64,000 bases of DNA, taken from NCBI GenBank assembly GCA_951406725.2, contig OX597840.1, forward strand, positions 6,386,001-6,450,000, written 5' to 3'. Each line of letters opens with the position of its first letter. The stretch's first letter is position 1. This DNA is from Octopus vulgaris. Its lineage: Eukaryota. Of this stretch, positions 12,196-56,872 are shown one piece after another. A program made the position numbers and the translations under genes. Below the pieces are notes generated by a model that was given only the letters and a program-made list of their open reading frames with translations, did not search any database and was not told the DNA's origin.

Positions 12196-12230
12196 TACCT
12201 GAATCGCTGGTTCATATGTTTCTCCATCAT
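12196..12230 (+). pseudogene. Frameshifted (35 nt) paralog of the 36-nt microexon
   Basis: ttttctgcag|tacctgaatcgctggttcatatgtttctccatcat|gtttgtacagttcta aligns to 16399-16450 with a 1-nt deletion; Helitron-like element inserted just upstream. Confidence 0.55.
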
Positions 12231-12445
12231 GTTTGTACAGTTCTATTGTATGGTTAATAAAAGCATTACTGAATGTAATTAGTTATTCTGAGATTATATT
12301 CTAGTTCAGCATCTGGTAGTTCGTTATAATTATAAATATCATATGAAGCTATTTCACATCAAAAATATTCAGACCAACTGTGTTAAGCTGTGTTTAATAT
12401 TGGTGTATGTGATACATAATGCTTTTATATAATGTTTAATGTATA

Positions 12446-16398: not shown

Positions 16399-16434
16399 GA
16401 CCAAGTGTATCTGGTGCAGCTGTTACTCCAGCAG
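16399..16434 (+). CDS. Microexon (36 nt, phase 1-1), encoding GPSVSGAAVTPA
   Basis: ttttgttgcag|GA CCA AGT GTA TCT GGT GCA GCT GTT ACT CCA GCA G|gtaagg; strong splice sites. Confidence 0.8.
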
Positions 16435-20398: not shown

Positions 20399-21351
20399 TA
20401 CGACGGGCTTCTTTCAGTTTCCGTCTACCAAATCCACTCACAAGGCTTTGGTCGGCCCGAGGCTATAGTAGAAGACACTTGCCCAAAGTGTCATGCAGTG
20501 GGAATGAACCTGGAACCATGTGGTTGATAAGGAAGCTACTTACCACACAGCCACTCCTACAGTTTTATTACATCATTGTTCTCCACCTCCCTTTTTATGT
20601 ATTACCACTTATCATCTCCTCCTCCCCTTTGACATATTCCCCTTTTCTTTACATTCCTTTAAACAGACACTCCCCATTGTCTATGCCTCCAACCAGATTT
20701 ATCATTCACTGCTTTTACTCTGTTCTCATCTCCACCATCTGCCATTCTCCTTTCACATTAGATGATTTTATTGCACTGAACTGTTACTCATTTTTACCAG
20801 CTGAGTGGACTGGAGCAATGTGAAATGAAGTGTTTTGCACAAGAACACAACATGTCGCCTGGTCCAGGAATCGAAACCACAATCTTATGATCATGGTGCT
20901 GACACCCTAACCACTAAGCCACGTGCCTCCACTAATATGATAGTAATATTACTAGTTTATTGAATGGCTTTCCTTTATGGTATTTGTTCTAACTCCAGGA
21001 TGATACTTTTCTTGTCTATGCAACAATTGATGACAACAGATTTTCTGCTGTGAAGAGTTTGAGACCAACACTACAGGAACTGAACTGTAAAAGTTATTTT
21101 CCTAAGGGGCCCTAGTTTTCATTTGTTGTACCTGTCATTTTATTTCTACTACTAATACCTTGCATGTTATTAACTCACTTTCCTCCCCCTACAAATCTTG
21201 TAATTATCAAAAAAATTCATTAATGTCTCTACTAATTACAACAGCGAACTGTACCTTACCATTGAGTCTACAAATTTAGCTGCTATTAAGATTTTACCTC
21301 ATGAATTTCAAATGTGACGTTTTAATAAATCCCTTTTAATTCTTGTTTTAG

Positions 21352-21614
21352 TTGAAAATTGCAGATTTATGGATGGAATGGCAAATGGGAAATTGATCCC
21401 AGATTCTGATATCTTCCTCCCCACTAAGGAATCTCCAGAAGCGCTACGGCCATCTGGAATAGGTTGGAAAATAAAGCCATTTGCTTCATCAAAACTTGAA
21501 GTTAAAATTGATAACAACATTTTGAAATATGGAGCAGTCGTTATTTTACGGGAGCATAAAAATGTAGCTACGTTTTCCATAAGTTTTCAGAAAGATCATT
21601 CAAATGTAATAAGG
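21352..21614 (+). CDS. Exon A1 (263 nt, phase 1-0): N-terminal part of discoidin/F5-8 type C-like domain copy 1 (VENCRFMDGMANGKLIPDSDI...EALRPSGIGW...HSNVIR)
   Basis: ttcttgttttag acceptor, AGG|gtaagt donor, open frame, duplicated at 27903-28165. Domain assignment inferred from the C..GM..G.IPDS.I...LR...GW pattern. Confidence 0.9.
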
Positions 21615-22964
21615 GTAAGTGACATAAATATTTACTTTTATATTAGTTTAACCCTTTAACATTCAGATTTTTTCTGTCAAACGTAATCCTTATTCTTTCA
21701 CATTGTTTAAAATTAATTATGCATTATCTTGTGGCTTTGAGATTTTGATGATGTGATTGTTTATTTTGAGAATGACACTGTAGTAACGGAAGGCATTCAA
21801 TTTGATGCTATACTGTGTTAGATATCTTTGTACTTGTTATGATGGGATATCTGAAATATCATCGTATATTTTAATTGAACACTGAATAATGAAATGAAAT
21901 TGTAGGGTAGGTGTGAGAAGCCAGATCTATTCTGGACAGATACTCTTTTACTTGTTTCAGTCATTTGACTGCGGCCATGCTGGAGCACCGCCTTTAGTCG
22001 AGCAAATCGACCCCGGGACTTATTCTTTGTAAGCCCAGTACTTATTCTATCGGTCTCTTTTACCGAACCGCTAAGTGACGGGGACGTAAACACACCAGCA
22101 TCGGTTGTCAAGCAATGCTAGGGGGACAAACACAGACACACAAACACACACATACATATATATATATATACATATACATATATACGACGGGCTTCTTTCA
22201 GTTTCCGTCTACCAAATCCACTCACAAGGCATTGGTCGGCCCGAGGCTATAAGTAGAAGACACTTGCCCAAGATGCCACGCAGTGGGACTGAATCCGGAA
22301 CCATGTGATTGGTAAGCAAGCTACTTACCACACAGCCACTCCTGCGCCAGTTTAAATGCTAAATTGTTAAATGGGGATAGGGACAAATGATGGTAAAGAG
22401 AAAAACTAAATTATTTTCAACAGCAGGAGTGGCTGTGTGGTAAGTAGCTTGCTAACCAACCACATGGTTCTGGGTTCAGTCCCACTGCGTGGCATCTTGG
22501 GCAAGTGTCTTCTGCTATAGCCCCGGGCCGACCAATGCCTTGTGAGTGGATTTGGTAGACGGAAACTGAAAGAAGCCTGTCGGATATATGTATATATATG
22601 TATGTGTGTGTTTGTATGTTTGTGTTTGTCCCCCTAGCATTGCTTGACAACCGATGCTGATGTGTTTATGTCTCCGTAACTTAGCGGTTCGGCAAAAGAG
22701 ACCGATAGAATAAGTACTGGGCTTACAAAGAATAAGTCCCGGGGTCGATTTGCTCAACTAAAGGCGGTGCTCCAGCATGGCCACAGTCAAATGACTGAAA
22801 CAAGTAAAGAGAGATTATCTCTTTTTTTTTTGTAACTTCTCACAGATTCTTTATATTTTTCTTTAAGAAAAAGTTCTATCAGACACAAGAGAGATTTTAA
22901 AAATGCAAATAACTCTCATATATTTGTTATTTATACTAAAAATTACAATTAGGTAACAATTACA

Positions 22965-23561
22965 ATTGTGTTGTCCAGAAAGTTCGTGCCAATTTACAGT
23001 AGCTTACCTTTCAACTTATTTTAGAACATGGTTGAGTCCATAAAATTGGATTTGACCACACCTGTAAAATTTCCTCAGTCTTGGTTTTACAAGAGGTGAA
23101 CATTTAAAGCCAACACCAACAAGTAAAGTTCAAATGCTATTGGATTGTCCGGAAAGTTTGTGCTGATTTATAGTTGCTTACCTTTCGACTTATTTTAGAA
23201 CATGGTTGAGTCCATAAAATAGGATTTGGCTACACCTCCATTTAGAGAGCACAGTTTAAGCTATCTTTTTGGGGAAGAAGGTTTATGTTCCTATAGCCTG
23301 TGTTAATTCTGTAACCCTTTAAAATGGAAGATAAGAATGTTCATTTTCGGCACTTGATGCTTTGGGAACCAGACAAAAATTGCTGCAGTTCGGCTGGGAT
23401 GTGTTACCCCACCCTCCATATTCACTAGATATTGCTAGATATATTCACTAAATATTACTAGATAATATCACTAGATATTCAGGTCTCTGCAGAATAGTCT
23501 TGATGGTAAAAATTTCAATTCCTTGGATGATGTAAAAAGATACCTTGATGAATTCTTTGCC
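22965..23561 (+). mobile_element. Internally deleted mariner with duplicated left end
   Basis: MEDKNVHFRHLMLW joined close to GWDVLPHPPYSLDIA and RSLQNSLDGKNFNSLDDVKRYLDEFFA; TIR-like ttg.ttgtcc.gaaagtt occurs twice. Confidence 0.8.
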
Positions 23562-23746
23562 ACATCTCAATCATTCTCTCTTCATTCTGTCAACCATTCT
23601 ATCTAGCATTTATTGTTGTAACGATGTCTGGTACCAAAAATATTTTTACAGCTACTTTCATTGTTCACCGTCTTCTGTACTGGCATATTTGTGTACACCA
23701 ATACATAAACAAAATTTTAGAAAGATTGAAGGATCAAACAAAAACA

Positions 23747-25207
23747 CTGTACTGGTGCCTTAGTGTATCAGTAAATAAGCATGTAATGATTTCTGGTACC
23801 AAAAAAAATATTACAGCAATTTTCATTGTTTACAATCTTCTGTACTGGTATATCTGTGTATCAGTAAATAACCATGGGTAAATATTTTGTAAAGGACCTC
23901 TTTGTATCTTGGTGTAGAATAATTGTTTTCCCTAGGTATTTTTTGAGCGTATTCAACGTATCTGACCTCCAAACCCACTGCAAACTACTTTTTTCTGAAA
24001 AAGAAAGGGGGAAGGGGGTCGAAAAATTATTTCACAGTGAAATATTAGTGGGTCCTTTATCAGAAATAGCTGTTACGTAGTAGTAGGGCGTGCAAGAAAT
24101 AGCAGCCAAATCTTCCTTTTCTGGGGAAAGGAGTCATTTGCACATGATTTCAATGTCACATTCATTGAAAGTATGTGAAATAACCTGGAAAAGAAAAACA
24201 AAAACCAATGAAACAAAACTCTGTTGGTGGGAAACTCCGAGATGGAAACCCTTTTCTTTTCCGGAAAAAAGTGGCTTGGAGGTCAGATATGTTGAATGCA
24301 CTCAAAAAAACTAGTGGAAAAATAATTATTTCACACCAAGGTATGAACGGGTCCTTTACGAAATATTTACTCCCGAATGAAACTGGGTCCTTCTGCTTGT
24401 AATCTCTATATGTATAAGTGGCAAAATGTCTGTGTGTGTGTCCTTTATACAAATCCACAATTTTTCAGTTCGAGGGCTCGCACTTTCTATGGTCATTTAA
24501 AACCGTCCAAGGGTGGTCGTGCACATCTTTGCATTTCTCCAGTCACCCCGCAAAGCCATTAAAAAATCAATAGAAGTGATTTTTGGTGAATTTTCTATCC
24601 AAAACCCAATCAAAATGTCCGAAACTTGATATGCCAATTGAATGCCAGCTAGCTGTATGTGATTGGGCGGAGATTTGGACAGTACTCGCATGTATGTGTG
24701 CATGCACGCAGCTGTATATGCATGCACTAGCACTGTGACCTGGCATTTTGTTTCATTGGTTTTTGTTTTTCTTTTCACATACTTTCAATGAATGTGACAT
24801 CGAAATCATGTGCAAATGGCTCCTTTCCCCAGAAAAGGGAAGATTTGGCTGCTATTTCTTGCACGCCCTACTACCACGTAACAGCTATTTCTGATAAAGG
24901 ACCCACTGATATTTCACTGTGAAATAATTTTTCGACCCCCTTCCCCCTTTCTTTTCCAGAAAAAAGTAGTTTGCGGTGGGTTTGGAGGTCAGATACGTTG
25001 AATACGCTCAAAAAGAACCTAGAGAAAACAATTATTCTACACCTAGATACAAAGAGGTCCTTTACAAAATATTTACCCATGGTTATTTACTGATACACAG
25101 ATATACCAGTACAGAAGATTGTAAACAATGAAAGTTGCTGTAATATTTTTTTTGGTACCAGAAATCGTTACATGCTTATTTACTGATAAACTAAGGCACC
25201 AGTACAG
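23747..25207. repeat. Long inverted duplication: arms ~23747-24218 and ~24746-25207, involving a TIR element and a Helitron fragment
   Basis: High reverse-complement identity; near-identical ORFs 23874(+) and 25080(-). Confidence 0.9.
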
Positions 25208-25329
25208 AGCTAGTTAGATATAATTCTTAAAAAGTAGGTTCCATAAAGATCTGCCACAATGTTTCATGCAATCCAAGAAATAGGTATGTGCAGACTTTAT
25301 AATGTATACATTGAAGAATATTGTTCTAT

Positions 25330-25730
25330 AGGCGCAGGAGTGGCTGTATGGTAAGCAGCTTGTTTACCAACCCCATGGTTCCGGGTTCAGTCCCACTGCG
25401 TGGCACCTTGGGCAAGTGTCTTCTACTATAGGCTCGGGCCGACCAAAGCCTTGTGAGTGGATTTGGTAGACGGAAACTGAAAGAAGCCTGTCGTATATAT
25501 GTATATATATATAAGTGTGTGTGAATATGTTTGTGTGTCTGTGTTTGTCCCCCTAGCATTGCTTGACAACCGATGCTGGTGTGTTTATGTCCCCGTCACT
25601 TAGCGGTTCGGCAAAAGAGACCGATAGAATAAGTACTGGGCTTACAAAGAATAAGTTCCGGGGTCGAGTTGCTCGATTAAAGGCGGTGCTCCAGCATGGC
25701 CGCAGTCAAAATGACTGAAACAAGTAAAAA
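25330..25730 (+). mobile_element. Full-length tRNA-derived SINE, family A. Other copies: ~725-870(-), 1742-1860(+), 8985-9350(-), 13905-14315(+), 18265-18675(-), 20115-20560(-), 21940-22350(-), 22422-22812(+), 47335-47660(-), 56733-57115(+), 59125-59295(-), 59357-59775(+), 61538-61682(+), 62061-62205(+)
   Basis: A box tggctgtgtgg, B box ggttcagtccc, internal (TA/TG)n, gagtaaaa tail. Confidence 0.92.
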
Positions 25731-26130
25731 GAAGAAAAAAAAAAGGAAAAAAAAAAAGAAAAGTATTTCTGAATAAAAAATGTCAGAGTCATTGCTAGAT
25801 AGCTTTGACCATGGTCCAATTGGACCTGTGCTGACCAAGGGCTAAACAAGTGAAACAGCTACAGACAAGAACGTTGAACCAATCAAATTGCTGGTGGGGT
25901 GAACCTTGTATTGCTTATACTGAGGTCTCTTCATTAAATGCAAGCTTTTTCTTTGTTTAGGAAAACAAACAGAATGAATTGGTTTGGTTCTAATTTATTT
26001 CTCTGGTGGATATTTTGTTGAACTTGACGAGGTATTCACAAAGTCTGAATACAAGACGAGACACTAAGTGTTTGCTTCACTCTGTAAAATGGTGTTCTCT
26101 TAATATCATGTTTGGTTCTTTTTGAAATAG

Positions 26131-26266
26131 AGTTTCGGAGCAACTGAAAATGGTACCATACCACAAGGAACAAATGCAGACCAGATTCTGATTCACTTTC
26201 TATCGGTAAACTCAGAGGAAGCAATGACTGTCACTCTGTCAATTATTGCCTGTTTCCAAACAATAA
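26131..26266 (+). CDS. Exon B1 (136 nt, phase 0-1): C-terminal part of domain copy 1 (SFGATENGTIPQGTNADQILIHFLSVNSEEAMTVTLSIIACFQTI)
   Basis: ttctttttgaaatag acceptor, A|gtaagt donor; joins A1 in frame; closing beta-strand plus Cys (TLSIIAC) resembles the discoidin LR.EL.GC end. Confidence 0.9.
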
Positions 26267-27607
26267 GTAAGTTAATCATATTTAATTCTATTTGATGTTC
26301 TTTCATGTGTTTCTGCTGTGTTTTGTGTCTGTATGTGTTTGTTTTGTCTGTTTCCTTTTTCTTTTACCTCACATATATATATATGTATTTATATGTGTGT
26401 ATATATTATTACTGTACATGCAGCCTCTTGACTACCATCAACAGGCTCCCACAGGCTGTGTCCAATAGCTCAGAATTCTGTGCAGGAAAGCTCTGCCAAC
26501 CATCTTGCTTAGAGTGGAAGAATCAGTAATCAAAGAGTCAGAAGATTTAAAAATAACGAAAAAAAAATCGTTGAGTTTAACCAAAATAAAAGAAATTTAA
26601 TTTAGAGGCAAATAAATGTTTAGGGAATAAATAGTGAGTTCTTTAGAGAGTTCTTTCATTTATTTCTGAAGAGTGTAGATTCCTTTTGGTGAGCTCTTCT
26701 TTTATTCAGAAGTCTTTTTTACCTTTTTTGCTCCCTTCTTTTTTTTTTTTTGACTTGACCCTGTTTTTACTTCCAAATACACTTTAGTCTCGTACCAACT
26801 TCATACTCTGCATTCTTTATGTTGCCAAGTTCACGCTGCTTTTGCAGCAAGGTGGAAACCTTCCACCTTACAAAGACACCACCTTACACATAAACCAACT
26901 CACATTCACAGTCACATCCAACTGATTTATTACAATTTTCCTTGACACCTAATACTGTGACAACTGTTCCTCATGCCTGGCTCCATGGCACTTGTTGAGA
27001 GCCTCACATCGACCGCATGGCACTGAATACTACATAAACAATTTACATCAGCTTCCAGCACGAACTCCCAACACAATTTAACTTGCCACATATCAATGAG
27101 TAGGCTTTATAGTTCGCCCAAACAGTAGAAAGAGTGCCAAAATCACACTTCCTGTGCTGTAAGCATTAACATACCCACAGTAAATGTTTGTTGTCCTGCC
27201 TTGGAAATCCAGAGATTAGTGTTCTAATATGTGTCGTACAAAGGAGAAATTATCTCAATATCATTTTTTGCTCATAACAATATGTTATTTTTGTATGTCT
27301 GGAATTATATGAATTCAGAAACACATGCATATGTATTTCACACAGAAAATTAAAAAATTTGTTGTATTTGGTCAATATTCTCTTTCATAATCAAAAACTC
27401 CACATAACTTTAATATTTAATTTCTTTGGACTTAAACATGAACATTGAAAGAAATGCAAGACTGAAATTTGAAAAAGGCAATTGTAGAAACATCTCTGCA
27501 ATTTTAATGCCATTTTAGAAATTATACAAAATGAGTAAACATAGTTTCTAGTGCTACATTTTGTATCTGCCTAAATGTAAAATGAGTTATCTACTTTGCA
27601 TTTCCAG

Positions 27608-27649
27608 CACCATCAAGCCCAACACCATATTTAGGATCGAGTCCAACAG
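27608..27649 (+). CDS. Linker microexon (42 nt, phase 1-1), encoding TPSSPTPYLGSSPT
   Basis: ctttgcatttccag|CA CCA TCA AGC CCA ACA CCA TAT TTA GGA TCG AGT CCA ACA G|gttagt; joins B1 and A2 in frame. Confidence 0.8.
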
Positions 27650-27902
27650 GTTAGTAAATATTGCCTCGAATTCAAATCATTTATATGCTAACATTTCAAT
27701 TCATTGTTTATGTTTGTGTATCAGTACAAATGCATGGACAAATCTTGTATTTACCAAAACAATATTTTACTAATGTCTCTACTTAATACAGCAGCAAGCC
27801 ACGCCCTGCCATTAAGTCAACGAATTTAGCTGCTATTGAGATTTTACCTCATGAATTTCAAATGTGACATTTTAATAAATCATTTTTTAATTCTTGTTTT
27901 AG

Positions 27903-28165
27903 TTGAAAATTGCAGATTTATGGATGGAATGGCAAATGGGGAATTGATCCCAGATTCTGATATCTTCATCCCCACTAAGGAATCTCCAGAAGCGCTACGG
28001 CCATCTGGAATAGGTTGGAAAATAAAGCCATTTACTTCATCACAACTTGAAGTTCAAATTGATAACAACATTTTGAAATATGGAGCAGTCATTATTTTAC
28101 GGAAGCATAAAAATGTAGCTACGTTTTTGATAATTTATCAGAAAGATCATTCAAATGTAATAAGG
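27903..28165 (+). CDS. Exon A2 (263 nt): domain copy 2, N-terminal part
   Basis: Same splice sites and length as A1; 11 nt differences. Confidence 0.9.
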
Positions 28166-28947
28166 GTAAGTGACATAAATATTTACTTTTATATTAGTCT
28201 AACCCTTTAACATTCAGATTTTTTCTGTCAAACGTAATCCTTATCCTTTCACATTGTTTTAAATTAATTATGCATTATCTTGTAGCTTTGAGATTTTGAT
28301 GATGTGATTGTTTATTTTGAGAATGACACTGTAGTAACGGAAGGCATTCAATTTGATGCTATACTGTGTTAGATATCTTTGTACTTGTTATGATGGGATA
28401 TCTGAAATATCATCGTATATTTTAATTGAACACTGAATAATGGAAAAGAAGAAATAGCACATTCCATTTGGCAAAACATAATCCAAATTTCATTAAAGAA
28501 TAAAGTCTAAAATATTTAACGTACAGGAACAGATGTGGCCTTGTGGTAAAATCTTGCTTTGAAACCATAAGGTTGCAGGTTAGATCCACTGCAAAAGATG
28601 ATGGAGTCATTGCTGGACAGCTTTGGCAGTGGCTCAATTGGACCACTGAAGACCAATGGTTAAACCAGACTACAGACAAGAATGTTGAGCCAATTAAAGT
28701 GCTCAGAGGGTGGAGTTAACCATGTACTGCTTATACTGAGGTCTTTTAATTAAATGCAAGCTTTTTCTTTGTTTAGGAAAACAAACAGAATGAATTGGTT
28801 TGGTTCTAATTTATTTCTCTGGTGGATATTTTGTTGAACTTGATGAGGTATTCACAAAGTCTGAATACAAGACAAGACACTAAGTGTTTGCTTCTCTCTG
28901 TAAAATGGTGTTCTCTTAATATCATGTTTGGTTCTTTTTTGCAATAG

Positions 28948-29083
28948 AGTTTCAATGCAACTGAAAATGGTACCATACCACAAGGAACGAATGTAGACCA
29001 GATTCTGATTCACTTTCGACCGGTAAACTCAGAGGAAGCAATGACTGTCACTCTGTCAATTATTGCCTGTTTCCAAACAATAA
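28948..29083 (+). CDS. Exon B2 (136 nt): domain copy 2, C-terminal part (SFNATENGTIPQGTNVDQILIHFRPVNSEEAMTVTLSIIACFQTI)
   Basis: ttttttgcaatag acceptor, A|gtaagt donor; paralog of B1. Confidence 0.9.
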
Positions 29084-29459
29084 GTAAGTTAATCACATTT
29101 AATTCTATTTGAGGTGCTTCAATGTGTTACTGCTGTGTTTTGTGTCTCTATGTGTTTGTTTTGTTTGCTTGTTTTTTCTTTTACCTCACATGTAACAAAA
29201 TCGGATTTGAATGAACTGGTTTTCATTCAAGGAGAACACCAGTTGCAAGCATATATATATATCATCATCATCATCATCATCCTCATTATTTAACATCTGT
29301 AGCAGCTGAATATGATGCTGCTACACCAGTCACTGAGGATTAAACCTTCCTGAACAACCTGATTAACTATACAGGTGACTAGACTATACCCTGGTCTAGT
29401 CACCTGTATAGATAATCAGCTTATATCTAGTGACTCAGTTGTAACCCACTCCCTCAGAT

Positions 29460-37975: not shown

Positions 37976-40900
37976 CAACAACAGAACAATATAAGTCAGC
38001 ATCCATTCCTTACACAACCAGTACAGTTACACCAATGACAAATATCATTACCAAGACATCGTCTCCTACTAAGATTATAACCACCATGACCAATATATTA
38101 AACGCAACTACAATCCGTACACAAGCATTTTCTTCCACATCTCTTGGCAAAACACCTTCAATATTACCAAGCACTACAACAACGAGACAACAAACACAGG
38201 TACCATCAGCAACAACCTCAATACCATCAGCAACAACCTCAGTACCATCAGCAACAACATCCATACCATCAGCAACAATATCAATACCATCAGCAACAAC
38301 ATCCATACCATCAGCAACAATATCGATACCATCAGCAACAACATCCATACCATCAGCAACAATATCGACACCATCAGCAATGACAACAACACCAGCAACA
38401 AAGGCATCAATACTGTCAACAACATCAGTAATACCATCTGCAACAATATCAATACCTTCCACAATTACATCAATACCATCGGCAACAATATCAGTGACAG
38501 CAGCAACAACTACAGTACCATCCCAAACAAAATGGATACCATCAGTCATGACATCGATGTCAACAGCAACAACATCAATACCACTCGTAACATCAACACC
38601 ATCAGCAATGACATCAATACCACCAGCAACAACAACAGTACCATCAACAATAACATCAATTCCATCAGCCACAACATCAACACTATCAGCAACAACATCA
38701 ATACCATCAGCGACAACATCAATACCATTAGCGACAACATCAATACCATCAGCAACAACATCAATACCGTCAGCAACAACATCAATACCATCAGCAACAA
38801 CATCAATACCATCAGAAACTACATCAATACCATCAGCAAAAACTTTAATACCATCAGCCACTACATCAATAACATCAGCAACAACATCAATACCGTCAGC
38901 AGCAACATCAATACCATCAGCAACAACATCAATACCGTCAGCAACAACATCAATACCATCAGCAAGAACATCCATAACATCAGCAGCAACATCAATACCG
39001 TCAGCAACAACATCAATACCATCAGCAACGACATCAATACCATCAGCAACGACATCAATACCATCAGCAACGACATCAAAACCATCAGCAACAACATCGA
39101 TACCATCAGCAACAACAACAATACCATCAGCAACAACATCAATACCATCAGCAACAACATCAATACCATCAGCTACGACATCAATACCATCAGCAACAAC
39201 ATCAATACCATCAGCAACAACATCAATACCATCAGCAACAACATCGATACCATCAGCAACAACATCGATACCATCAGCAACAACTTTAATACCATCAGCA
39301 ACAACATCAATACCATCAGAAACTACATCAATACCATCAGCAACAACTTTAATACCATCAGCCACTACATCAATATCATCAGCAGCAACATCAATACCGT
39401 CAGCAACAACATCAACACCATCAGCAACAACATCAATACCATCAGCAACAACAACAATACCATCAGCAACAACATCAATACCATCAGCAACAACATCAAT
39501 ACCATCAGCAATAACATCAATACCATCAGCAGCAACATACATACCATCAGCAACAACATCAATACCACCAGCAACAACATCAATACCATCAGCAACAACA
39601 TCAATACCATCAGCAACAACATCAATACCATCAGCAACAACATCAATACCATCAGTAATGACATCAATACCATCAGGAACGACAATACCATCAGCAACAA
39701 CATCAATACCATCAGCAACAACATCAATACCATCAGCAACAACATCAATACCATCACCAACAACAACAATACCATCACCAACAACATCAATACCATCAGC
39801 AACAACATCGATGCCATCAGCTACGACATCAATACCATCACCAACAACATCAATACCATCACCAACAACATCAATACCATCAGCAACAACATCAATACCA
39901 TCAGCAACAACATCAATACCATCAGCAACAACTTTAATACCATCAGCAACAACATCAATACCATCAGCAACAACATCAATACCGTCAGCAGCAACATCAA
40001 TACCATCAGCAAGAACATCCATAACATCAGCAGCAACATCAATACAGTCAGCAACAACATCAATACCATCAGCAACGACATCAATACCATCAGCAACATC
40101 AATACCATCAGCAACGACATCAAAACCATCAGCAACAACATCAATACCATCAGCAACAACATCAATACCATCAGCAACAACATCAATACCATCAGCAACA
40201 ACATCAATACCATCAGCAACAACATCAATACCATCAGCAACAACATCAATACCATCAGCAACAACATCAATACCATCAGCAACAACATCAATACCATCAG
40301 CAACAACATCAATACCATCAGCAACAACATCAATACCATCAGCAACAACATCAATACCATCAGCAACAACAATACCATCAGCAACAACATCAATACCATC
40401 AGCAACAACATCAATACCATCAGCAACAACAACAATACCATCAGCAACAACATCAATACCATCAGCAACAACATCAATACCATCAGCAATAACATCAATA
40501 CCATCAGCAACAACATACATACCATCAGCAACAACATCAATACCACCAGCAACAACACCAACACTACCAGCAACAACATCAATACCATCAGCAACAACAT
40601 CAATACCATCAGCAACAACATCAATACCATCAGTAATGACATCAATACCATCAGGAACGACAATACCATCAGTAATGACATCAATACCATCAGCAACAAC
40701 ATCAATACCGTCAGCAACAACATCAAAACCATCACCAACAACAACAATACCATCACCAACAACATCAATACCATCAGCAACAACATCGATGCCATCAGCT
40801 ACGACATCAATACCATCAGCAACAACATCAATACCGTCAGCAGCAACATCAATACCATCAGCAAGAACATCCATAACATCAGCAGCAACATCAATACCAT

Positions 40901-43900
40901 CAGCAAGAACATCCATAACATCAGCAACAACAACAATACCATCAGCAACAACATCAATACCATCAGCAACAACATCAATACCATCATCAAGAACATCCAT
41001 AACATCAGCAGCAACATCAATACCGTCAGCGACAACATCAATACCATCATCAGGAACATCAATACCATCAGCAACAACTTTAATACCTTCAGCAACAACA
41101 TCAATACCATCAGCAACAACATCAATACCATCAGCAACAACATCAATACCATCAGCAACAACATCAATAACATCAGCAACAACATCAATACCATCAGCAA
41201 CAACATCAATACCATCAGCAACAACATCAATACCATCAGCAACAACATCAATACCATCAGCAACAACATCAATACCATCAACAACAACATCCATAACATC
41301 AGCAGCAACATCAATACCGTCATCAACAAAATTAATACCGTCAGCAACAACATCAATACCGTCAGCAACAACATCAATACCATCAGCAACAACATCAATA
41401 CCATCAGCAACAACATCAATACCATCAGCAACAACATCAATACCATCAGCAACATCAATACCATCAGCAACAACATCAATACCATCAGCAACAACATCAA
41501 TACCATCAGCAACAACATCAATACCATCAGCAACAACATCAATACCATCAGCAACAACATCAATACCATCAGCAACAACATCAATACCGTCAGCAACAAC
41601 ATCAATACCATCAGCAACAACATCAATACCATCAGCAACAACATCAATACCATCAGCAACAACATCAATACCGTCAGCAACAACATCAATACCATCAGCA
41701 ACAACATCAATACCATCAGCAACAACATCAATACCATCAGCAACAACATCAATACCATCAGCAACAACATCAATACCATCAGCAACAACATCAATACCAT
41801 CAGCAACAACATCAATACCATCAGCAACAACATCAATACCATCAGTAATGACATCAATACCATCAGCAACAACATCAATACCATCAGCAACAACATCAAT
41901 ACCATCAGCAACAACATCAATACCATCAGCAACAACATCAATACCATCAACAACAACATCAATACCATCATCAACAACATCAATACCATCAGCAACAACA
42001 TCAATACCATCAGCAACAACATCAATACCATCAGCAACAACATCAATACCATCAGCAGCAACATCAATACCATCAGCAAGAACATCCATAACATCAGCAA
42101 CAACATCAATACCATCAGCAACAACATCAATACCATCAGCAACAACATCAATACCATCAGCAACAACATCAATACCATCAGCAACAACATCAATACCATC
42201 AGCAACAACATCAATACCATCAGCAGCAACATCAATACCATCAGCAACAACATCAATACCATCATCAACAACATCAATACCATCAGCAACAACATCAATA
42301 CCATCACAACAACATCAATACCATCAGCAACAACATCAATACCATCAGCAACAACATCAATACCATCAGCAACAACATCAATACCATCAGCAGCAACATC
42401 AATACCATCAGCAACAACATCAATACCATCAGCACAACAACAAATACCATCAGCAACAACATCAATACCATCAGCAACAACATCAATACCATCAGCAACA
42501 ACATCAATACCATCAGCAACAACATCAATACCATCAGCAACAACATCAATACCATCAGCAACAACATCAATACCATCAGCAACAACATCAATACCATCAG
42601 CAACAACATCAATACCATCAGCAGCAACATCAATACCTCAAAACAACAGCAACAACATCAATACCATCAGCAACAACATCAATACCATCAATACCAACAG
42701 CAAAACAATACCATCAGCAACAACATCAATACCATCAGCAACAACATCAGCACCATCAAACAACATCAATACCATCAATACCATCAGCAACAACATCAAT
42801 ACCGTCAGCAACAACATCAATACCATCAGCAACACATCAATACCATAGCAACAACATCAATACCATCAGCAACAACATCAATACCATCAGCAACAACATC
42901 AATACCATCAGCAACAACATCAATACCATCAGCAACAACATCAATACCATCAGCAACAACATCAATACCATCAGCACAACATCAATACCATCAGCACAAC
43001 ATCAATACCATCAGCAACAACATCAATACCATCAGCAACAACATCAATACCATCAGCAACAACATCAATACCATCAGCAACAACATCAATACCATCAGCA
43101 ACAACATCAATACCTCAGAACAACATCAATACCATCAGCAACAACATCAATACCATCAGCAACATCAATACCAACAAACACATCAATACCATCAGCAACA
43201 ACATCAATACCATCAGCAAAACATCAATAACATCAATACCACAGCAACAACATCAATACCATCAGCAACAACATCAATACCATCAGCAACAACATCAATA
43301 CCGTCAGCAACAACATCAATACCATCAGCAACAACATCAATACCATCAGCAATCACCATCAGCAACAACATCAATACCGTCAGCAACAACATCAATACCG
43401 TCAGCAACAACATCAATACCATCAGCAACATCAATACCATCAGCAACATCAATACATCAATCAACACAGCAACAACATCAATACCATCAGCAACAACATC
43501 AATACCGTCAGCAACAACATCAATACCATCAGCAACAACATCAATACCATCAGCAACAACATCAATACCATCAGCAACAACATCAATACCATCAGCAACA
43601 ACATCAATACCATCACAACAACATCAATACCATCAGCAACAACATCAATACCATCAGCAACAACATCAATACCATCAGCAACAACATCAATACCATCAGC
43701 AACAACATCAATACCATCAGCAACAACATCAATACCATCAGCAACAACATCAATACCATCAGCAACAACATCAATACCATCAGCAGCAACATCAATACCA
43801 TCAGCAACAACATCAATACCATCAGCAACAACATCAATACCATCAGCAACAACATCAATACCATCAGCAACAACATCAATACCATCAGCACAACATCAAT

Positions 43901-46900
43901 ACCATCAGCAACAACATCAATACCATCAGCAACAACATCAATACATCAGCAACAACATCAATACCATCAGCAACAACATCAATACCATCAGCAACAACAT
44001 CAATACCATCAGCAGCAATACCATCAGCAACAACATCAATACCATCAGCAACAACATCAATACCATCAGCACAACATCATCCTCACAACAACATCAATAC
44101 CATCAGCAACAACATCAATACCATCAGCAACAACATCAATACCATCAGCAACAACATCAATACCATCAGCAACAACATCAATACCATCAGCAACAGCATC
44201 AATACCATTAACAACAACATCAATACCATCAGCAACAACATCAATACCATCAGCAACAACATCAATACCATCAGCAACAACATCAATACCGTCAGCAACA
44301 ACATCAATACCGTCAGCAACAACATCAATACCATCAGCAACAACATCAATACCATCAGCAACAACATCAATACCATCAACAACAACATCAATACCATCAG
44401 CAACAACATCAATACCATCAGCAACAACATCAATACCATCAGCAACAACATCAATACCATCAGCAACAACATCAATACCGTCAGCAGCAACATCAATACC
44501 ATCAGCAAGAACATCCATAACATCAGCAACAACATCAATACCATCAGCAACAACATCAATACCGTCAGCAACAACATCAATACCATCAGCAACAACATCA
44601 ATACCATCAGCAACAACATCAATACCATCAGCAACAACATCAATACCGTCAGCAACAACATCAATACCATCAGCAACAACATCAATACCATCAGCAACAA
44701 CATCAATACCATCAGCAACAACATCAATACCATCAGCAACAACATCAATACCATCAGCAGCAACATCAATACCATCAGCAACAACATCAATACCATCAGC
44801 AACAACATCAATACCATCAGCAACAACATCAATACCATCAGCAACAACATCAATACCGTCAGCAACAACATCAATACCATCAGCAACAACATCAATACCA
44901 TCAGCAACAACATCAATACCATCAGCAACAACATCAATACCATCAGCAGCAACATCAATACCATCAGCAACAACATCAATACCATCAGCAACAACATCAA
45001 TACCATCAGCAGCAACATCAATACCATCAGCAACAACATCAATACCATCAGCAACAACATCAATACCATCAGCAACAACATCAATACCATCAGCAACAAC
45101 ATCAATACCATCAGCAACAACATCAATACCACCAACAACATCAATACCATCACAACAACATCAATACCAGCAACAACATCAATACCGTCAGAAACAACAT
45201 CAATACCAACAACAACATCAATACCCACAACAACATCAATACCAACAACAACATCAATACCAACAACAACATCAATACCGTCAGCAACAACATCAATACC
45301 GTCAGCAACAACATCATTGCCATCAGCAACAACATCAATACCGTCAGCAGCAACATCAATACCATCAGCAGCAACATCAATACCATCAGCAATAACATCA
45401 ATACCGTCAGCAACAACATCAATACCGTCAGCAACAACATCATTGCCATCAGCAACAACATCAATACCGTCAGCAGCAACAACATCAATACCATCAGCAA
45501 CAACATCAATACCATCAGCAACAACATCAATACCATCAGCAACAACATCAATACCATCAGCAACAACATCAATACCGACAGCAACAACATCAATACCATC
45601 AGCAATAACATCAATACCATCAGCGACAACATCAATACCACCAGCAACAACATCAATACCATCAGCAGCAACATCAATACCGTCAGCAACAACATCAATA
45701 CCATCAGCAACAACATCAATGCCATCAGCCACAACATCAATACCATCAGCAACAACATCAATACCATCAGCAACAACATCAATACCATCAGCAACAACAT
45801 CAATACCATCAGCAACAACATCAATACCATCAGCAACAACATCAATACCATCAGAAACAACATCAATACCATCAGAAACAGCATCAATACCATTAACAAC
45901 AACATCAATACCGTCAGCGACAACATCAATACCACCAGCAGCAACATCAATACCATCAGCAGCAACATCAATACCGTCAGCAACAACATCAATACCATCA
46001 GCAACAACATCAATACCATCAGCAACAACATCAATACCATCAGCAACAACATCAATACCATCAGCAACAACATCAATACCCACAACATCAATACCATCAG
46101 CAGCAACATCAATACCATCAGCAACAACATCAATACCATCAGCAATAACATCAATACCATCAGCAACAGCAACAACAACATCAATACCCAGCAACAACAT
46201 CAATACCATCAGCAACAACATCAATACCATCAACAACATCAATACCATCAACAACATCAATACCGCCAGCAACAACATCAGCAACAACATCAATACCATC
46301 AGCAGCAACATCAATACCATCAGCAACAACATCAATACCATCAGCAACAACATCAATACCATCAGCAACAACATCAATACCATCAGCAACAACAACAATA
46401 CCATCAGCAACAACATCAATACCGTCAGCAACAACATCAATACCATCAGCAACAACATACATACCATCAGCAACAACATCAATACCACCAGCAACAACAC
46501 CAACACTACCTGCCACTACATCAATACCATCAGCAACAACATCAATACCATCAGCAACAACATCAATACCATCAGTAATGACATCAATACCATCAGCAAC
46601 AACACGAAAACCATCAGCAATGACATCAATACCATCAGCAATAACATCAATACCATCAGCAACAACAACAATACCATCATCAACAACATCAGTACCGACA
46701 GCAACAACATCAATACCATCAGCAATAACATCAATACCATCAGCAACAACATCAATACCATCAGCAACAACATCAATACCATCATCAACAACATCAATAC
46801 CGACAGCAACAACATCAATACCATCAGCAACTACATCAATACCATCAGCAACAACATCAATACCATCAGCAACAACATCAATACCATTAGCAACAACATC

Positions 46901-47006
46901 AATACCATCATCAACAACATCATTACCGACAGCAACAACATCAATACCATCAGCAACAACATCATTACCGTCAACAACAACATCAATACCATCAGCAACA
47001 ACATCA
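37976..47006 (+). CDS. Giant mucin PTS exon: unique Thr/Ser-rich lead-in, then (IPSATTS)n; frame intact to ~42305, then frameshifts; truncated by the N-gap
   Basis: tgttccatgttacag|CA ACA ACA GAA is a phase-1 acceptor matching upstream donors; ~1440 uninterrupted PTS codons; length variants in the first 4.3 kb preserve frame. Confidence 0.85.
38200..47006 (+). repeat. Coding VNTR, 21-nt unit ATACCATCAGCAACAACATCA, roughly 400 copies with higher-order blocks
   Basis: Directly visible tandem array. Confidence 0.98.
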
Positions 47007-47106
47007 NNNNNNNNNNNNNNNNNNNNNNNNNNNNNNNNNNNNNNNNNNNNNNNNNNNNNNNNNNNNNNNNNNNNNNNNNNNNNNNNNNNNNNNNNNNNNN
47101 NNNNNN
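47007..47106. other. Assembly gap (100 N)
   Basis: N run. Confidence 1.
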
Positions 47107-47659
47107 TTTCTTTATTACCCACAAGGGGCTAAACACAGAGGGGACAAACAAGGACAGACATAGGTATTAAGTCGATTACATCGACCCCAGTGCGTAACTG
47201 GTACTTAATTTATCGACCCCGAAATGATGAAAGGTAAAGTCGACCTCGGCGGAATTTGAACTCACAACGTAACGGCAGACAAAATACCGCAAAGCATTTC
47301 GCCCGACGTGCTAACGTTTCTGCCAGCTCCCCGTCTTTATTTGTAAGCCTAGCACTTATTCTGTCGGTCTCTTTTGCTGAACCGCTAAGTACGGCGACGT
47401 AAACACATCAGCATCGGTTGTCAAGTGATGTTGGTGGGGGGGGGGAAGGAACACAGACACACAAACATACACACATATATATATACACATATACATATAT
47501 ACGACGGGCTTCTTTCAGTTTCCGTCTACCAAATCCACTCACAAGGCTTTGGTCGGCCTGAGACTATAGTAGAAGACACTTGCCCAAGGTGCCACGCAGT
47601 TGGACTGAACCTAGAACCATGTGACTGGTAAGCAAACTACTTACTACACAGCCACTCCC

Positions 47660-47673
47660 ACATACATACATAC

Positions 47674-47704
<31 letters not shown>

Positions 47705-47909
47705 CATACATACATACATACATACATACATACATACATACATACACACATACATACATACATACATACATACATACATACATACATACATACATACATA
47801 CATACATACATACATACATACATACATACATACATACATACATACATACATACGCCCATACATACATACATACATACATACATACATACATACATACATA
47901 CATACATAC

Positions 47910-47940
<31 letters not shown>

Positions 47941-50900
47941 CATACATACATACATACATACATACATACATACATACATACATACATACATACACACATA
48001 CATACATACATACATACATACATACATACATACATACATACATACACACATACATACATACATACATACATACATACATACATACATACATACATACATA
48101 CATACATACAGACATACATACATACATACATACATACACACATACATACATACATACATACATACATACATACATACATACATACATACATACATACATA
48201 CATACATACATACATACATACACACATACATACATACATACATACATACATACATACACACATACATACATACATACATACACACATACATACATACATA
48301 CATACATACATACATACACACATACATACATACATACATACACACATACATACATACATACATACATACATACACACATACATACATACATACATACACA
48401 CATACATACATACATACATACATACATACACACATACATACATACATACATACATACATACATACACACATACATACATACATACATACACACATACATA
48501 CATACATACATACATACATACATACATACATACATACATACATACATACATACATACATACATACATACATACATACATACATACATACATACATACATA
48601 CATACATACATACATACATACATACATACATACATACATACATACATACATACATACATACATACATACATACATACATACATACATACATACATACATA
48701 CATACATACATACATACATACATACATACATACATACATACATACATACATACATACATACATACATACATACATACATACATACATACATACATACATA
48801 CATACATACATACATACATACATACATACATACATACATACATACATACATACATACATACATACATACATACATACATACATACATACATACATACATA
48901 CATACATACATACACACATACATACATACATACAGACATACATACATACATACATACATACATACATACATACAGACATACATACATACATACATACATA
49001 CATACATACATACATACATACATACATACATACATACATACATACATACATACATACATACATACATACATACATACATACATACATACATACATACATA
49101 CATACACACATACATACATACATACATACATACATACATACATACATACATACATACATACATACATACATACATACATACATACATACATACATACATA
49201 CATACATACATACATACATACATACATACATACATACATACATACATACATACATACATACATACATACATACATACATACATACATACATACATACATA
49301 CATACATACATACATACATACATACATACATACATACATACATACATACATACATACATACATACATACATACATACATACATACATACATACATACATA
49401 CATACATACATACATACATACATACATACATACATACATACATACATACATACATACATACATACATACATACATACATACATACATACATACATACATA
49501 CATACATACATACATACATACATACATACATACATACATACATACACACATACATACATACATACATACATACATACATACATACATACATACACACATA
49601 CATACATACATACATACATACATACATACATACATACATACACACATACATACATACATACATACATACATACATACATACATACATACACACATACATA
49701 CATACATACATACATACATACATACATACACACATACATACATACATACATACATACATACATACATACATACATACATACATACATACTTACATACATA
49801 CATACATACATACATACTTACATACATACATACATACATACACACATACATACATACATACATACATACATACATACATACATACATACATACATACATA
49901 CATACATACATACATACATACATACATACATACATACATACATACATACATACATACATACATACATACATACATACATACATACATACATACATACATA
50001 CATACATACATACATACATACATACATACATACATACATACATACACACATACATACATACATACATACATACACACATACATACATACATACATACATA
50101 CATACATACATACATACATACATACATACATACATACATACATACACACATACATACATACATACATACATACATACATACATACATACATACATACATA
50201 CATACACACATACATACATACATACATACATACATACATACATACATACATACATACATACATACATACATACATACATACATACATACATACATACATA
50301 CATACATACATACATACATACATACATACATACATACATACATACATACATACATACATACATACACACATACATACATACATACATACATACATACATA
50401 CATACATACATACAAATATACATACATACATACATACATACATACATACATACATACATACATACATACATACATACATACATACATACATACATACATA
50501 CATACATACATACATACATACATACATACATACATACATACATACATACATACATACATACATACATACATACATACATACATACATACATACATACATA
50601 CATACATACATACATACATACATACATACATACATACATACATACATACATACATACATACATACATACATACATACATACATACATACATACATACATA
50701 CATACATACATACATACATACATACATACATACATACATACATACATACATACATACATACATACATACATACATACATACATACATACATACATACATA
50801 CATACATACATACATACATACACACATACATACATACATACATACATACATACATACATACATACATACATACATACATACATACATACATACATACACA

Positions 50901-51117
50901 CATACATACATACATACATACATACATACATACATACATACATACATACATACATACATACATACATACATACATACATACATACATACATACATACATA
51001 CATACATACATACATACATACATACATACATACATACATACATACATACATACATACATACATACATACATACATACATACATACATACATACATACATA
51101 CATACATACATACACAC

Positions 51118-51148
<31 letters not shown>

Positions 51149-51289
51149 CATACATACATACATACATACATACATACATACATACATACATACATACATA
51201 CATACATACATACATACATACATACATACATACATACATACATACATACATACATACATACATACATACATACATACATACATACATAC

Positions 51290-51320
<31 letters not shown>

Positions 51321-51721
51321 CATACATACATACATACATACATACATACATACATACATACATACATACATACATACATACATACATACATACATACATA
51401 CATACATACATACATACATACATACATACATACATACATACATACATACATACATACATACATACACACTTACATACATACATACATACATACATACACA
51501 TACATACATACATACATACATACATACATACATACATACATACATACACACATACATACATACATACATACATACATACATACATACAATACATACATAC
51601 ATACATACATACATACATACATACATACACACATACATACATACATACATTCATACATACATACATACATACATACATACATACATACATACATACATAC
51701 ACACATACATACATACATACA

Positions 51722-51753
<32 letters not shown>

Positions 51754-52927
51754 CATACATACATACATACATACATACATACATACATACATACATACAT
51801 ACATACATACATACATACATACATACATACATACATACATACATACATACATACATACATACATACATACATACATACATACACATACATACATACATAC
51901 ATACATACATACATACATACATACATACATACATACATACATACATACATACACACATACATACATACATACATACATACATACATACATACATACATAC
52001 ATACATACATACATACATACATACATACATACATACATACATACATACATACATACATACATACATACATACATACATACATACATACATACATACATAC
52101 ATACATACATACACACATACATACATACATACATACATACATACATACATACATACATACATACATACATACATACATACATACATACATACATACATAC
52201 ATACATACATACATACATACATACATACATACATACATACATACATACATACATACATACATACATACATACATACATACATACATACATACATACATAC
52301 ATACACACATACATACATACATACATACATACATACATACATACATACATACATACATACATACATACATACATACATACATACATACATACATACATAC
52401 ATACATACATACATACATACATACATACATACATACATACATACATACATACATACATACATACATACATACATACATACATACATACATACATACATAC
52501 ATACATACATACATACATACATACATACATACATACATACATACATACATACATACATACATACATACATACATACATACATACATACATACATACATAC
52601 ATACATACATACATACATACATACATACATACATACATACATACATACATACATACATACATACATACATACATACATACATACATACATACATACATAC
52701 ACACATACATACATACATACATACATACATACATACATACATACATACATACATACATACATACATACATACATACATACATACACACATACACACACAC
52801 ATACATACATACATACATACATACATACATACATACATACATACATACATACATACACATACATACATACATACATACATACATACATACATACATACAT
52901 ACATACATACATACATACATACATACA

Positions 52928-52959
<32 letters not shown>

Positions 52960-53440
52960 CACACATACATACATACATACATACATACATACATACATAC
53001 ATACATGTCTGTCTGTCTGTCATACATACATACATACATACATACATACATACATACATACATACATACACACACATACATACATACATACATACATACA
53101 TACATACATACATACACACATACATACATACATACATACATACATACATACATACATACATACATACATACATACATACATACATACATACATACATACA
53201 TACACACATACACACACACATACATACATACATACATACATACATACATACATACATACATACATACATACATACATACATACATACATACATACATACA
53301 TACATACATACATACATACATACATACATACATACATACATACATACATACATACATACATACATACATACATACATACATACATACATACATACATACA
53401 TACATACATACATACATACATACATACATACATACATACA

Positions 53441-53474
<34 letters not shown>

Positions 53475-54135
53475 CATATATACACACATACATACATACA
53501 TACATACATACATACATACATACATACACACATACATACATACATACATACATACATACATACATACATACATACATACATACATACATACATACATACA
53601 TACATACATACATACATACACATACATACATACATACATACATACATACATACACACATACATACATACATACATACATACATACATACATACATACATA
53701 CATACATACATACATACATACATACATACATACATACATACATACATACATACATACATACATACATACATACATACATACATACATACATACATACATA
53801 CATACATACATACATACATACATACATACATACATACATACATACATACATACATACATACATACATACATACATACATACATACATACATACATACATA
53901 CATACATACATACATACATACATACATACATACATACATACATACATACATACATACATACATACATACATACATACATACATACATACATACATACATA
54001 CATACATACATACATACATACATACATACATACATACATACATACATACATACATACATACATACATACATACATACATACATACAGACATACATACATA
54101 CATACAATACATACATACATACATACATACATACA

Positions 54136-54166
<31 letters not shown>

Positions 54167-55923
54167 CATACATACATACATACATACATACATACATACA
54201 TACATACATACATACATACATACATACATACATACATACATACATACATACATACATACATACATACATACATACATACATACATACATACATACATACA
54301 TACATACATACATACATACATACATACATACATACATACATACATACATACATACATACATACATACATACATACATACATACATACATACATACATACA
54401 TACATACATACATACATACATACATACATACATACATACATACATACATACATACATACATACATACATACATACATACATACATACAGACATACATACA
54501 TACATACATACATACATACATACATACATACATACATACATACATACATACATACATACATACATACAGACATACATACATACATACATACATACATACA
54601 TACATACATACATACATACATACATACATACAGACATACATACATACATACATACATACATACATACATACATACATACATACATACATACATACATACA
54701 TACAGACATACATACATACATACATACATACATACATACATACATACATACATACATACATACAGACATACATACATACAGACATACATACATACATACA
54801 TACATACATACATACATACATACATACATACATACATACATACATACATACATACATACATACATACATACATACATACATACATACATACATACATACA
54901 TACATACATACATACATACATACATACATACATACATACATACATACATACATACATACATACATACATACATACATACATACATACATACATACATACA
55001 TACATACATACATACATACATACATACATACATACATACATACATACATACATACATACATACATACATACATACATACATACATACATACATACATACA
55101 TACATACATACATACATACATACATACATACATACATACATACATACATACATACATACATACATACATACATACATACATACATACATACATACATACA
55201 TACATACATACATACATACATACATACATACATACATACATACATACATACATACATACATACATACATACATACATACATACATACATACATACATACA
55301 TACATACATACATACATACATACATACATACATACATACATACATACATACATACATACATACATACATACATACATACATACATACATACATACATACA
55401 TACATACATACATACATACATACATACATACATACATACAGACATACATACATACAGACATACATACATACATACATACATACATACATACATACATACA
55501 TACATACATACATACATACATACATACATACATACATACATACATACATACATACATACATACATACATACATACATACATACATACATACATACATACA
55601 TACATACATACATACATACATACATACATACATACATACATACATACATACATACATACATACATACATACATACATACATACATACATACATACATACA
55701 TACATACATACATACATACATACATACATACATACATACAGACATACATACATACATACATACATACATACATACAAACATATACGTACATATATACATA
55801 CATACATACATACACACATACATACATACATACATACATACATACATACAGACATACATACATACATACATACATACATACATACATACATACATACATA
55901 CATACATACATACATACATACAT

Positions 55924-55954
<31 letters not shown>

Positions 55955-56497
55955 TACATACATACATACATACATACATACATACATACATACATACATA
56001 CATACATACATACATACATACATACACACACATACATACATACATACATACATACATACATACATACATACATACATACATACATACATACATACATACA
56101 TACATACATACATACATACATACATACATACATACATACATACATACATACATACATACATACATACATACATACATACATACATACACACACATACATA
56201 CATACATACATACATACACACACATACATACATACATACATACATACATACATACATACATACATACATACATACATACATACATACATACATACATACA
56301 TACATACATACATACATACATACATACATACATACATACACACATACATACATACATACATACATACACACACATACATACATACATACATACATACATA
56401 CATACATACATACATACATACATACATACATACATACATACACACACATACATACATACATACATACATACATACATACATACATACATACATACAT

Positions 56498-56534
<37 letters not shown>

Positions 56535-56617
56535 TACATACATACATACATACATACATACATACATACATACATACATACATACATACATACATACATA
56601 CATACATACATACACAC

Positions 56618-56649
<32 letters not shown>

Positions 56650-56684
56650 ACATACATACATACATGCATACATACATACATACA

Positions 56685-56713
<29 letters not shown>
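47660..56713. repeat. ~9-kb (ATAC)n tetranucleotide array
   Basis: Direct; sparse ACAC/AGAC variants. Confidence 0.99.
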
Positions 56714-56715
<2 letters not shown>

Positions 56716-56872
56716 TACAGAAGTAGACATTGGCGTGGGAGTGGCTGTGTGGTAAGTAGCTTGGCACCTTGAGCAAGTGTCTTCTACTATAGCCTCGGGC
56801 CGACCAAAGCCTTTTGAGTGGATTTAGTAGACCGAAACTGAAAGAAGCCCGTCGTATATATGTATGTATATC

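Follow-up and report, generated by a model that had tools for sequence, protein, structure and literature searches.

Tandem discoidin-like modules in a likely giant mucin-like gene of Octopus vulgaris: gene conversion and possible diversifying selection on a short patch of codons

Organization of the module locus

The window analyzed here is a stretch of 64,000 nucleotides (nt) from contig C27 of Octopus vulgaris (C27:6386001-6450000). C27 coordinates given below refer to the whole contig, and window coordinates refer to the 64,000-nt stretch. The window contains two tandem copies, w1 and w2, of a module encoded by two exons, A and B, in what is likely a very large mucin-like gene. These are only two of eight close copies, and the other six were absent from the preliminary description of this DNA, which had proposed that the module is under diversifying selection. 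We find that the copies are mosaics made by gene conversion and that their amino acid differences are concentrated in codons 72 to 91 (the hot patch), where local diversifying selection is our favored reading. The module features of the window are as follows.

21352..21614, + strand: exon A1 of copy w1, encoding the initial two-thirds of the discoidin-like module, phase 1 to 0
21567..21614, + strand: exon-A part of the hot patch (codons 72-87) in w1, the form nearest to that of Octopus bimaculoides
26131..26266, + strand: exon B1, last third of the module including the C-terminal Cys, phase 0 to 1
27903..28165, + strand: exon A2 (copy w2)
28118..28165, + strand: exon-A part of the hot patch in w2
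28948..29083, + strand: exon B2, whose first four codons complete the hot patch; N-A-T sequon

Searches with exons A and B gave 8 matches to each, 2 in the window and 6 in tandem upstream. The upstream copies, u1 to u6 (C27:6192979-6211512), lie ~200 kb 5' of the window pair. A distant ninth module, which is 34% identical to A1 and did not amplify, lies at C27:6247161-6251910; O. bimaculoides protein P0012 is closely similar to this single module. The A and B exons have canonical splice sites and joining frames. They are included in the O. vulgaris protein model P0003 (from NCBI), which links exon A1 with a 36-nt micro-exon at 16399..16434, and the NCBI O. bimaculoides model P0026 joins A to B likewise.

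Exons for the head of a mucin-like protein are found upstream on the same strand, at C27:6074175-6120442, in the order TIL, VWD, TIL, TIL, VWD, C8, TIL, LDLa (9 of the 11 candidate frames have a Pfam match, one of them under its cut-off). Arrays of phase-1 Ser/Thr/Pro micro-exons of 21 to 51 nt, in several families and dozens of copies, extend over C27:6133000-6402434, and the window also contains a giant exon of ATTSIPS repeats. The A+B module starts and finishes in phase 1, like the micro-exons and the ATTSIPS exon. Because these phases are compatible, the head, micro-exons, modules, and ATTSIPS exon are likely to be one gene of >350 kb built by exon duplication. The micro-exon arrays, the ATTSIPS exon, and the VWD-type head all support the earlier proposal that the module sits on a mucin stalk.

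Repeats of this kind could be artefacts of assembly, the copies being uncollapsed haplotypes or polishing chimeras and their differences being errors. The 17 frame switches that occur in the ATTSIPS exon beside an N gap show that repeats of this gene are imperfectly assembled. For the modules, however, 28 of the 30 bins of the w2 unit are covered by contigs of two public runs, which come from two studies. All 25 variant letters checked, which are those inside the aligned unit among the 40 listed (there are 119 further ones), agree with alleles found in other assembled copies. Run X1 shows both states of the L/R difference, and run X2 shows the 3-nt in-frame insertion. In addition, the copies are 5 to 10% apart and differ by insertions, and errors would not leave eight frames open. 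Mis-assembly, which the preliminary description had named as a possible refutation, thus looks very improbable. Over positions 28060-28238, the contigs of the two runs are 15 to 17 letters off w2, like u4 to u6 (14 to 16) and unlike u1 to u3 (21) or w1 (7), which hints that the patch types carried by these runs resemble u4 to u6. Two runs presumed to be RNA cover only an interspersed repeat on the w2 unit (4 and 6 of 30 bins) and give no evidence about expression.

Divergence between the two window copies

The proposal of diversifying selection was based on a comparison of w1 with w2, and its counts were reproduced letter for letter. Between A1 and A2 there are 11 differences in 263 nt; they affect 10 codons, and each of the 10 is a replacement. 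Between B1 and B2 there are 7 differences in 136 nt, which affect 5 codons, with 4 replacements (including a G/N change that creates N-A-T) and 1 silent change. This is a total of 14 replacement codons to 1 silent codon, and the intron after exon A differs at 4 of 275 nt. What these counts were taken to mean is a different matter. Because about 74 to 77% of neutral changes in this sequence are replacements, the 14:1 ratio is at the level of chance (P = 0.068 for 1 or fewer silent codons of 15; nucleotide-level P = 0.10 to 0.19), and the omega (dN/dS) of the pair is 2.8, with a 95% confidence interval (CI) of 0.66 to 25.

The claim that the exons diverge faster than their introns is reversed when all alignable intron is counted, with 70 of 894 intron positions (7.8%) differing versus 18 of 399 exon positions (4.5%). 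The 275-nt piece on which that claim rested is the least diverged of the five alignable intron pieces (4/275, 23/161, 26/148, 5/200, and 12/110), and the exon contrast with this piece alone has a P value of 0.068. In the multiple alignment, the pair differs at 68 of 869 intron and 18 of 399 exon positions, the introns being more diverged (Fisher P = 0.03). Across all eight copies, 58 of 396 exon positions and 138 of 868 intron positions are variable, so the exons are not more diverged than the introns. The pair data, with a chance-level ratio and a selective choice of intron, therefore do not show diversifying selection, which is suggested instead by the omega of the eight copies (about 1.7, versus 0.24 to 0.31 in a paralog) and by the 20-codon hot patch.

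Gene conversion among the eight copies

The eight copies are mosaics made by gene conversion. At 103 informative sites, four-gamete incompatibility rises from 8% for sites <30 nt apart to 41% for sites >700 nt apart, and none of 2,000 permutations was as low as the observed incompatibility between neighbors. Because the copies are mosaics, divergence is uneven along the unit, which accounts for the low 275-nt stretch. The highest divergence peak of the aligned unit is the 60-nt window from 28115 (seven copies, w1 excluded), and the hot patch bridges a 780-nt intron of little divergence. An exonic divergence peak under gene conversion is described as a mark of selection in the available part of a report on converted duplicates (PMC3924837). 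The simulations of homology-dependent conversion, which are 3 of the 8 settings, are uncalibrated, since none of their runs fell within the observed range of diversity.

Predicted fold of the module

The octopus module is 132 to 133 amino acids (aa) long, and C3 and C128 are invariant in 8 of 8 copies. In Pfam, no family match was found for the exons, for P0003, or for the homolog domains; a PDB sequence search with the module gave nothing at E < 0.01, and the ESM Atlas gave no usable lead for it. A phmmer search of 1.84 billion representative sequences gave 11 matches to the module. Of those retained, a chiton mucin-2-like protein has the module seven times over, and a Macrostomum protein repeats with a period of 221 aa; an O. 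bimaculoides protein and unnamed proteins were retained as well. Four matches (P0005, P0008, P0011, and P0013) were rejected as chance, none of them having scored against the domain profile.

The family of one homolog, P0023, is firmly linked to the octopus module (hhalign, 97.4%, E = 1.4e-11), at 16 to 25 bits versus no more than 7.1 for 500 shuffles each. The predicted structure of the P0023 domain has a predicted local distance difference test score (pLDDT) of 92.4 and matches neuropilin-2 b1 (Foldseek E = 5.4e-8), neuropilin-1 (Z = 14.8; root mean square deviation, 2.9; 130 residues aligned), discoidin I (Z = 14.2), and also factor V/VIII C2. A model of a 112-aa piece of the octopus module itself, without the last strand, has a pLDDT of 74, a best Z of 5.9, and no Foldseek match at E ≤ 0.001; it places strands at residues 73-80 and 84-91. 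Based on the P0023 homolog, we predict that the octopus module has a discoidin (F5/8 type C) fold that is unseen by Pfam, and the earlier suggestion of a discoidin-like domain is supported by this route. From an alignment with factor V C2 and neuropilin b1, we take the changing patch to lie on the beta-hairpin after the third ligand loop, running away from the classical pocket, and the classical ligand loops are presumably short in the octopus module.

Concentration of replacements in codons 72 to 91

Tree-free counting over the eight copies found 49 replacements and 10 silent changes. Omega is 1.72 when the mutation spectrum of the intron is used (1.37 to 1.72 under other counting or without w1), and the maximum-likelihood (ML) estimate is 1.7 to 1.8. 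Twenty-four of the 49 replacements (49%) fall within codons 72 to 91, a share that no run of six conversion nulls attained (0/2,400; 400 runs per null, kept from 509 to 984 by a filter on total variation). The patch crosses the A-B junction, and its variable residues are interleaved with the invariant residues F74, I76, I86, and F89. Compared with the O. bimaculoides model, 6, 9, and 12 of the 20 patch residues differ in three copy lineages, and 4 differ in w1. These three lineages altered the patch separately.

There are also signs of constraint on the module. Core positions, as identified from nine rows of distant homologs, have 0.10 changes per site versus 0.20 at the rest (P = 0.031), and the non-core omega is 2.1 (P = 0.021 versus silent changes). 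All eight copies are open, with both Cys residues and the splice sites kept and one in-frame indel, versus 11 indel events in the aligned intron. There are 0 stop codons versus 3.2 expected (P = 0.039). In simulations that constrained the core but left silent sites neutral, an omega of at least 1.72 was reached in 0, 1, and 3 of 400 runs.

A second locus, at C10:80.90-81.10 Mb, carries a paralog with a C8/TIL/VWD/LDLa head, at least 40 tandem two-exon modules, and a TIL/TSP1 tail. Its modules form three groups of 4, 19, and 17, which by the same counting have omega values of 0.26, 0.31, and 0.24. ML estimates on 4, 10, and 9 copies are 0.25, 0.24, and 0.23, with no signal in the site test. The C10 module exons are 6 to 11% apart, and the introns are far diverged. 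The replacement/silent ratio is 49:10 for C27 versus 179:218 for C10 (P = 4e-8), and the C27 modules have lost the usual constraint of the family.

Diversifying selection or relaxed constraint

A loss of constraint can also be understood as relaxation combined with gene conversion. Redundant young modules in a huge mucin would then keep their frame and fold core while their surface drifts at an omega near 1, and the hot patch would be an older block that has escaped overwriting by conversion, to which diverged blocks are resistant in themselves. We regard this as a serious alternative, although its chances fall below even.

Several results weigh against diversifying selection, and part of them favor relaxation directly. 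The 95% CI of the eight-copy omega, 0.86 to 3.8, includes 1. Likelihood-ratio tests against an omega of 1 gave P values of 0.058 and 0.089, and under GY the 2dL is 1.76. The 49 replacements seen are equal to the 49.0 expected from intron rates, and the excess is in fact a deficit of silent changes (10 versus 17.2 expected). This fits either exon-biased homogenization that spares replacements or a constraint acting on silent sites. Comparison of non-core positions with intron gave P values of 0.12 to 0.13. An omega of 1.72 was reached in 17 of 400 fully neutral runs, and in 26 or 95 of 400 runs in which silent sites were 30% constrained. Within the same gene, the Ser/Thr/Pro micro-exon families have omega values of 0.55 to 1.26, and their pooled counts are not significantly different from those of the module (P = 0.23). 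The C10 copies are older, which favors a lower omega in that paralog. Several selection tests were made, and the P values are given without correction for multiple tests.

The site test of M2a versus M1a gave a 2dL of 18.2, and we rejected it as evidence. It was passed by 8 of 12 overlapping sets of intron pseudo-codons and by 2 of 5 wrong frames, and also in 19 of 51 null simulations, 3 of the 51 reaching 18.2. Because introns read as codons pass the test in 8 of 12 trials, conversion can fake selection here.

There are doubts about the patch as well. Omega inside it is 1.1 to 1.7, which is not significant. Silent sites are raised too in u2 versus u5, with differing proportions of 0.34 for silent sites (pS) and 0.35 for replacement sites (pN), and silent and replacement divergence are likewise equal in u1 versus u4. 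The u4 to u6 block continues into the intron at similar density. In five settings of neutral conversion the P value of the nucleotide peak was 0.005 to 0.18, so that such a pairwise peak arises in up to 18% of neutral runs. One C10 group also has its greatest variability in this region (35% share), which points to a naturally tolerant region.

Relaxation does not readily account for several other observations. The clustering of replacements was not reproduced by any run of the six conversion nulls. The u1 to u3 block, unlike that of u4 to u6, breaks off where the exon ends and picks up again in exon B. The constraint on the core and the lack of stop codons speak for continuing selection on the domain, and relaxation predicts an omega of about 0.8 if the core is constrained. 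Weighing these points, we consider that the feature is real and that local diversifying selection on the patch, at a probability of roughly 0.55, is somewhat more likely than relaxed constraint.

Under diversifying selection, the locus would work as follows. A two-exon module is present in eight young tandem copies inside what would be one giant secreted mucin-like gene. Gene conversion would keep mixing the copies, while selection would drive and preserve residue differences on one probably exposed beta-hairpin, codons 72 to 91. The product of a single transcript may be a secreted mucus or adhesive polymer, O-glycosylated and linked by disulfides, in which the modules would be binding beads on a stalk and selection would favor different binding surfaces on neighboring beads. 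The beads might bind a glycan, a gel protein, a surface, or a microbe. Different hairpin faces would be kept on the beads in the way that the available part of the report on converted duplicates describes (PMC3924837). The architecture of the protein suggests the role in mucus or adhesion.

If this reading is correct, it would give a fold and a testable binding surface to a repeat family that lacks annotation and occurs in octopus, in a chiton, in unnamed metagenome proteins, and probably in ap2 of flatworms. The two octopus paralogs make a natural pair, one with an omega of about 0.25 for the module and the other with about 1.7, and the locus is a clear case of conversion among internal repeats faking or hiding positive selection.

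Comparison with known proteins

The protein is a variant of the known VWD mucin and ap2-like proteins, with an unannotated repeat of discoidin fold. Mlig-ap2 of Macrostomum lignano is described, in the available parts of two reports, as having N-terminal TIL, VWD, C8, and LDLa domains followed by tandem Cys-bounded repeats with Thr/Pro-rich linkers (PMC6410801, PMC8621496), and the available text of the latter terms these repeats important but unresolved. The head block is common to Mlig-ap2 and the C27 gene, and the C10 paralog has the whole ap2-like layout, C-terminal TIL/TSP1 domains included. The 221-aa repeat of P0004, which is matched by exon A, is letter-identical to a repeat in the accessible supplement of the Mlig-ap2 paper (PMC6410801). 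Homology of the C27 module to the 221-aa repeat is weak: the pooled profile scores 14.1 bits, above 500 shuffles, while sub-profiles score 5 to 6 bits, which is equalled by 1 to 2 of 500 shuffles (hhalign, 3.3%), and the phmmer match to P0004 rests on 24 summed stretches. In contrast to the near-identical repeats of Mlig-ap2 in the database, the octopus C27 copies differ from each other, and no more than nine modules were detected in the C27 gene, which also has micro-exon and ATTSIPS stalks. A literature search for Mlig-ap2 with discoidin returned only sea-urchin work, and a prior fold assignment may exist outside the covered literature. It is a more doubtful proposal that the octopus genes are relatives of ap2, that the unexplained central repeats of ap2 are cryptic discoidin domains unseen by Pfam, and that in one octopus paralog selection diversifies the binding faces of neighboring repeats on a non-canonical beta-hairpin while conversion homogenizes the rest. 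One giant mucus or adhesive polymer would then display several specificities.

The module resembles discoidin/F5/8 type C domains (neuropilin b1, factor V/VIII C2, DDR, and discoidin I) in the fold of the homolog model and in the terminal Cys pair, but it has no Pfam or PDB sequence match and is only 132 to 133 aa long. With gel-forming mucins and SCO-spondin-like proteins, the C27 gene shares VWD-C8-TIL assemblies and very long Pro/Thr/Ser tracts. It differs from gel-forming mucins in that its stalk is partly made from dozens of phase-1 micro-exons of 21 to 45 nt and in that a C-terminal cystine knot is unlinked in the assembly. Vertebrate mucins carry CysD domains, and the octopus gene has discoidin-like beads in their place. 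Mucins and SCO-spondin-like proteins are reported from O. vulgaris skin mucus, and this gene is not identified in the available part of that report (PMC11431876). Within limited coverage of subscription journals, literature searches for octopus or cephalopod mucin with discoidin, and for octopus mucin with positive selection and conversion, found no description.

Exon 5 of the red/green opsins is described, in the available part of one report, as a case of paralogs kept distinct under gene conversion (PMC3924837). The feature common to the opsins and the modules is an exonic divergence peak flanked by homogenized intron. In contrast to the opsins, the octopus copies are repeats in one likely gene, and their peak is not beyond every neutral setting.

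Other features of the locus

The remaining features of the window are as follows.

16399..16434, + strand: 36-nt phase-1 Ser/Thr/Pro micro-exon, last of ~30 copies upstream on the contig (motif matches and P0003)
21898..25775, no strand: extra sequence of ~3.7 kb in the A1-B1 intron, with interspersed repeats and an inverted repeat
27608..27649, + strand: 42-nt phase-1 Pro/Ser/Thr linker micro-exon between the w1 and w2 modules
37976..47006, + strand: giant phase-1 mucin exon with ATTSIPS repeats, ending at an N gap

Motif searches gave 37 matches to one micro-exon family and 30 and 10 strict matches to two families. The arrays are a candidate source of stalk length variation through alternative splicing. 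Two of the 36-nt copies have GC donors, and a degenerate 36-nt copy at window positions 12196-12231, which has no GT donor, is probably dead. The ATTSIPS exon is a single open frame until about position 42300, and the 17 frame switches that follow (42312-47106), before a gap of 100 N at 47007-47106, are probably assembly errors in the repeat. Right after the gap is a (TACA)n microsatellite of about 9 kb (about 47600-56800).

The A1-B1 intron is 4,516 nt long, while the matching intron of the other seven copies is 773 to 782 nt. It contains a 383-nt inverted repeat (arms at 23747-24129 and 24825-25207, 96% complementary, 695 nt apart) that looks like a non-autonomous DNA transposon, and the extra sequence may consist of SINE/MITE insertions.

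A motif scan to C27:6650000 (~215 kb past the gap) found no convincing C-terminal exon. Exons of TSP1, TIL, VWC-like, and cystine-knot-like type, with domain names partly read by eye, are found on the + strand at C27:12005730-12041700, ~32 kb after a 100-N gap at 11973973, and no VWD match is listed near this block. It may be the displaced 3' end of the mucin-like gene. VWD, TIL, and TSP1 matches also occur in similar order at C2:183.1-183.7 Mb and C27:33.84-33.93 Mb, and these two loci are possibly further members of the family.

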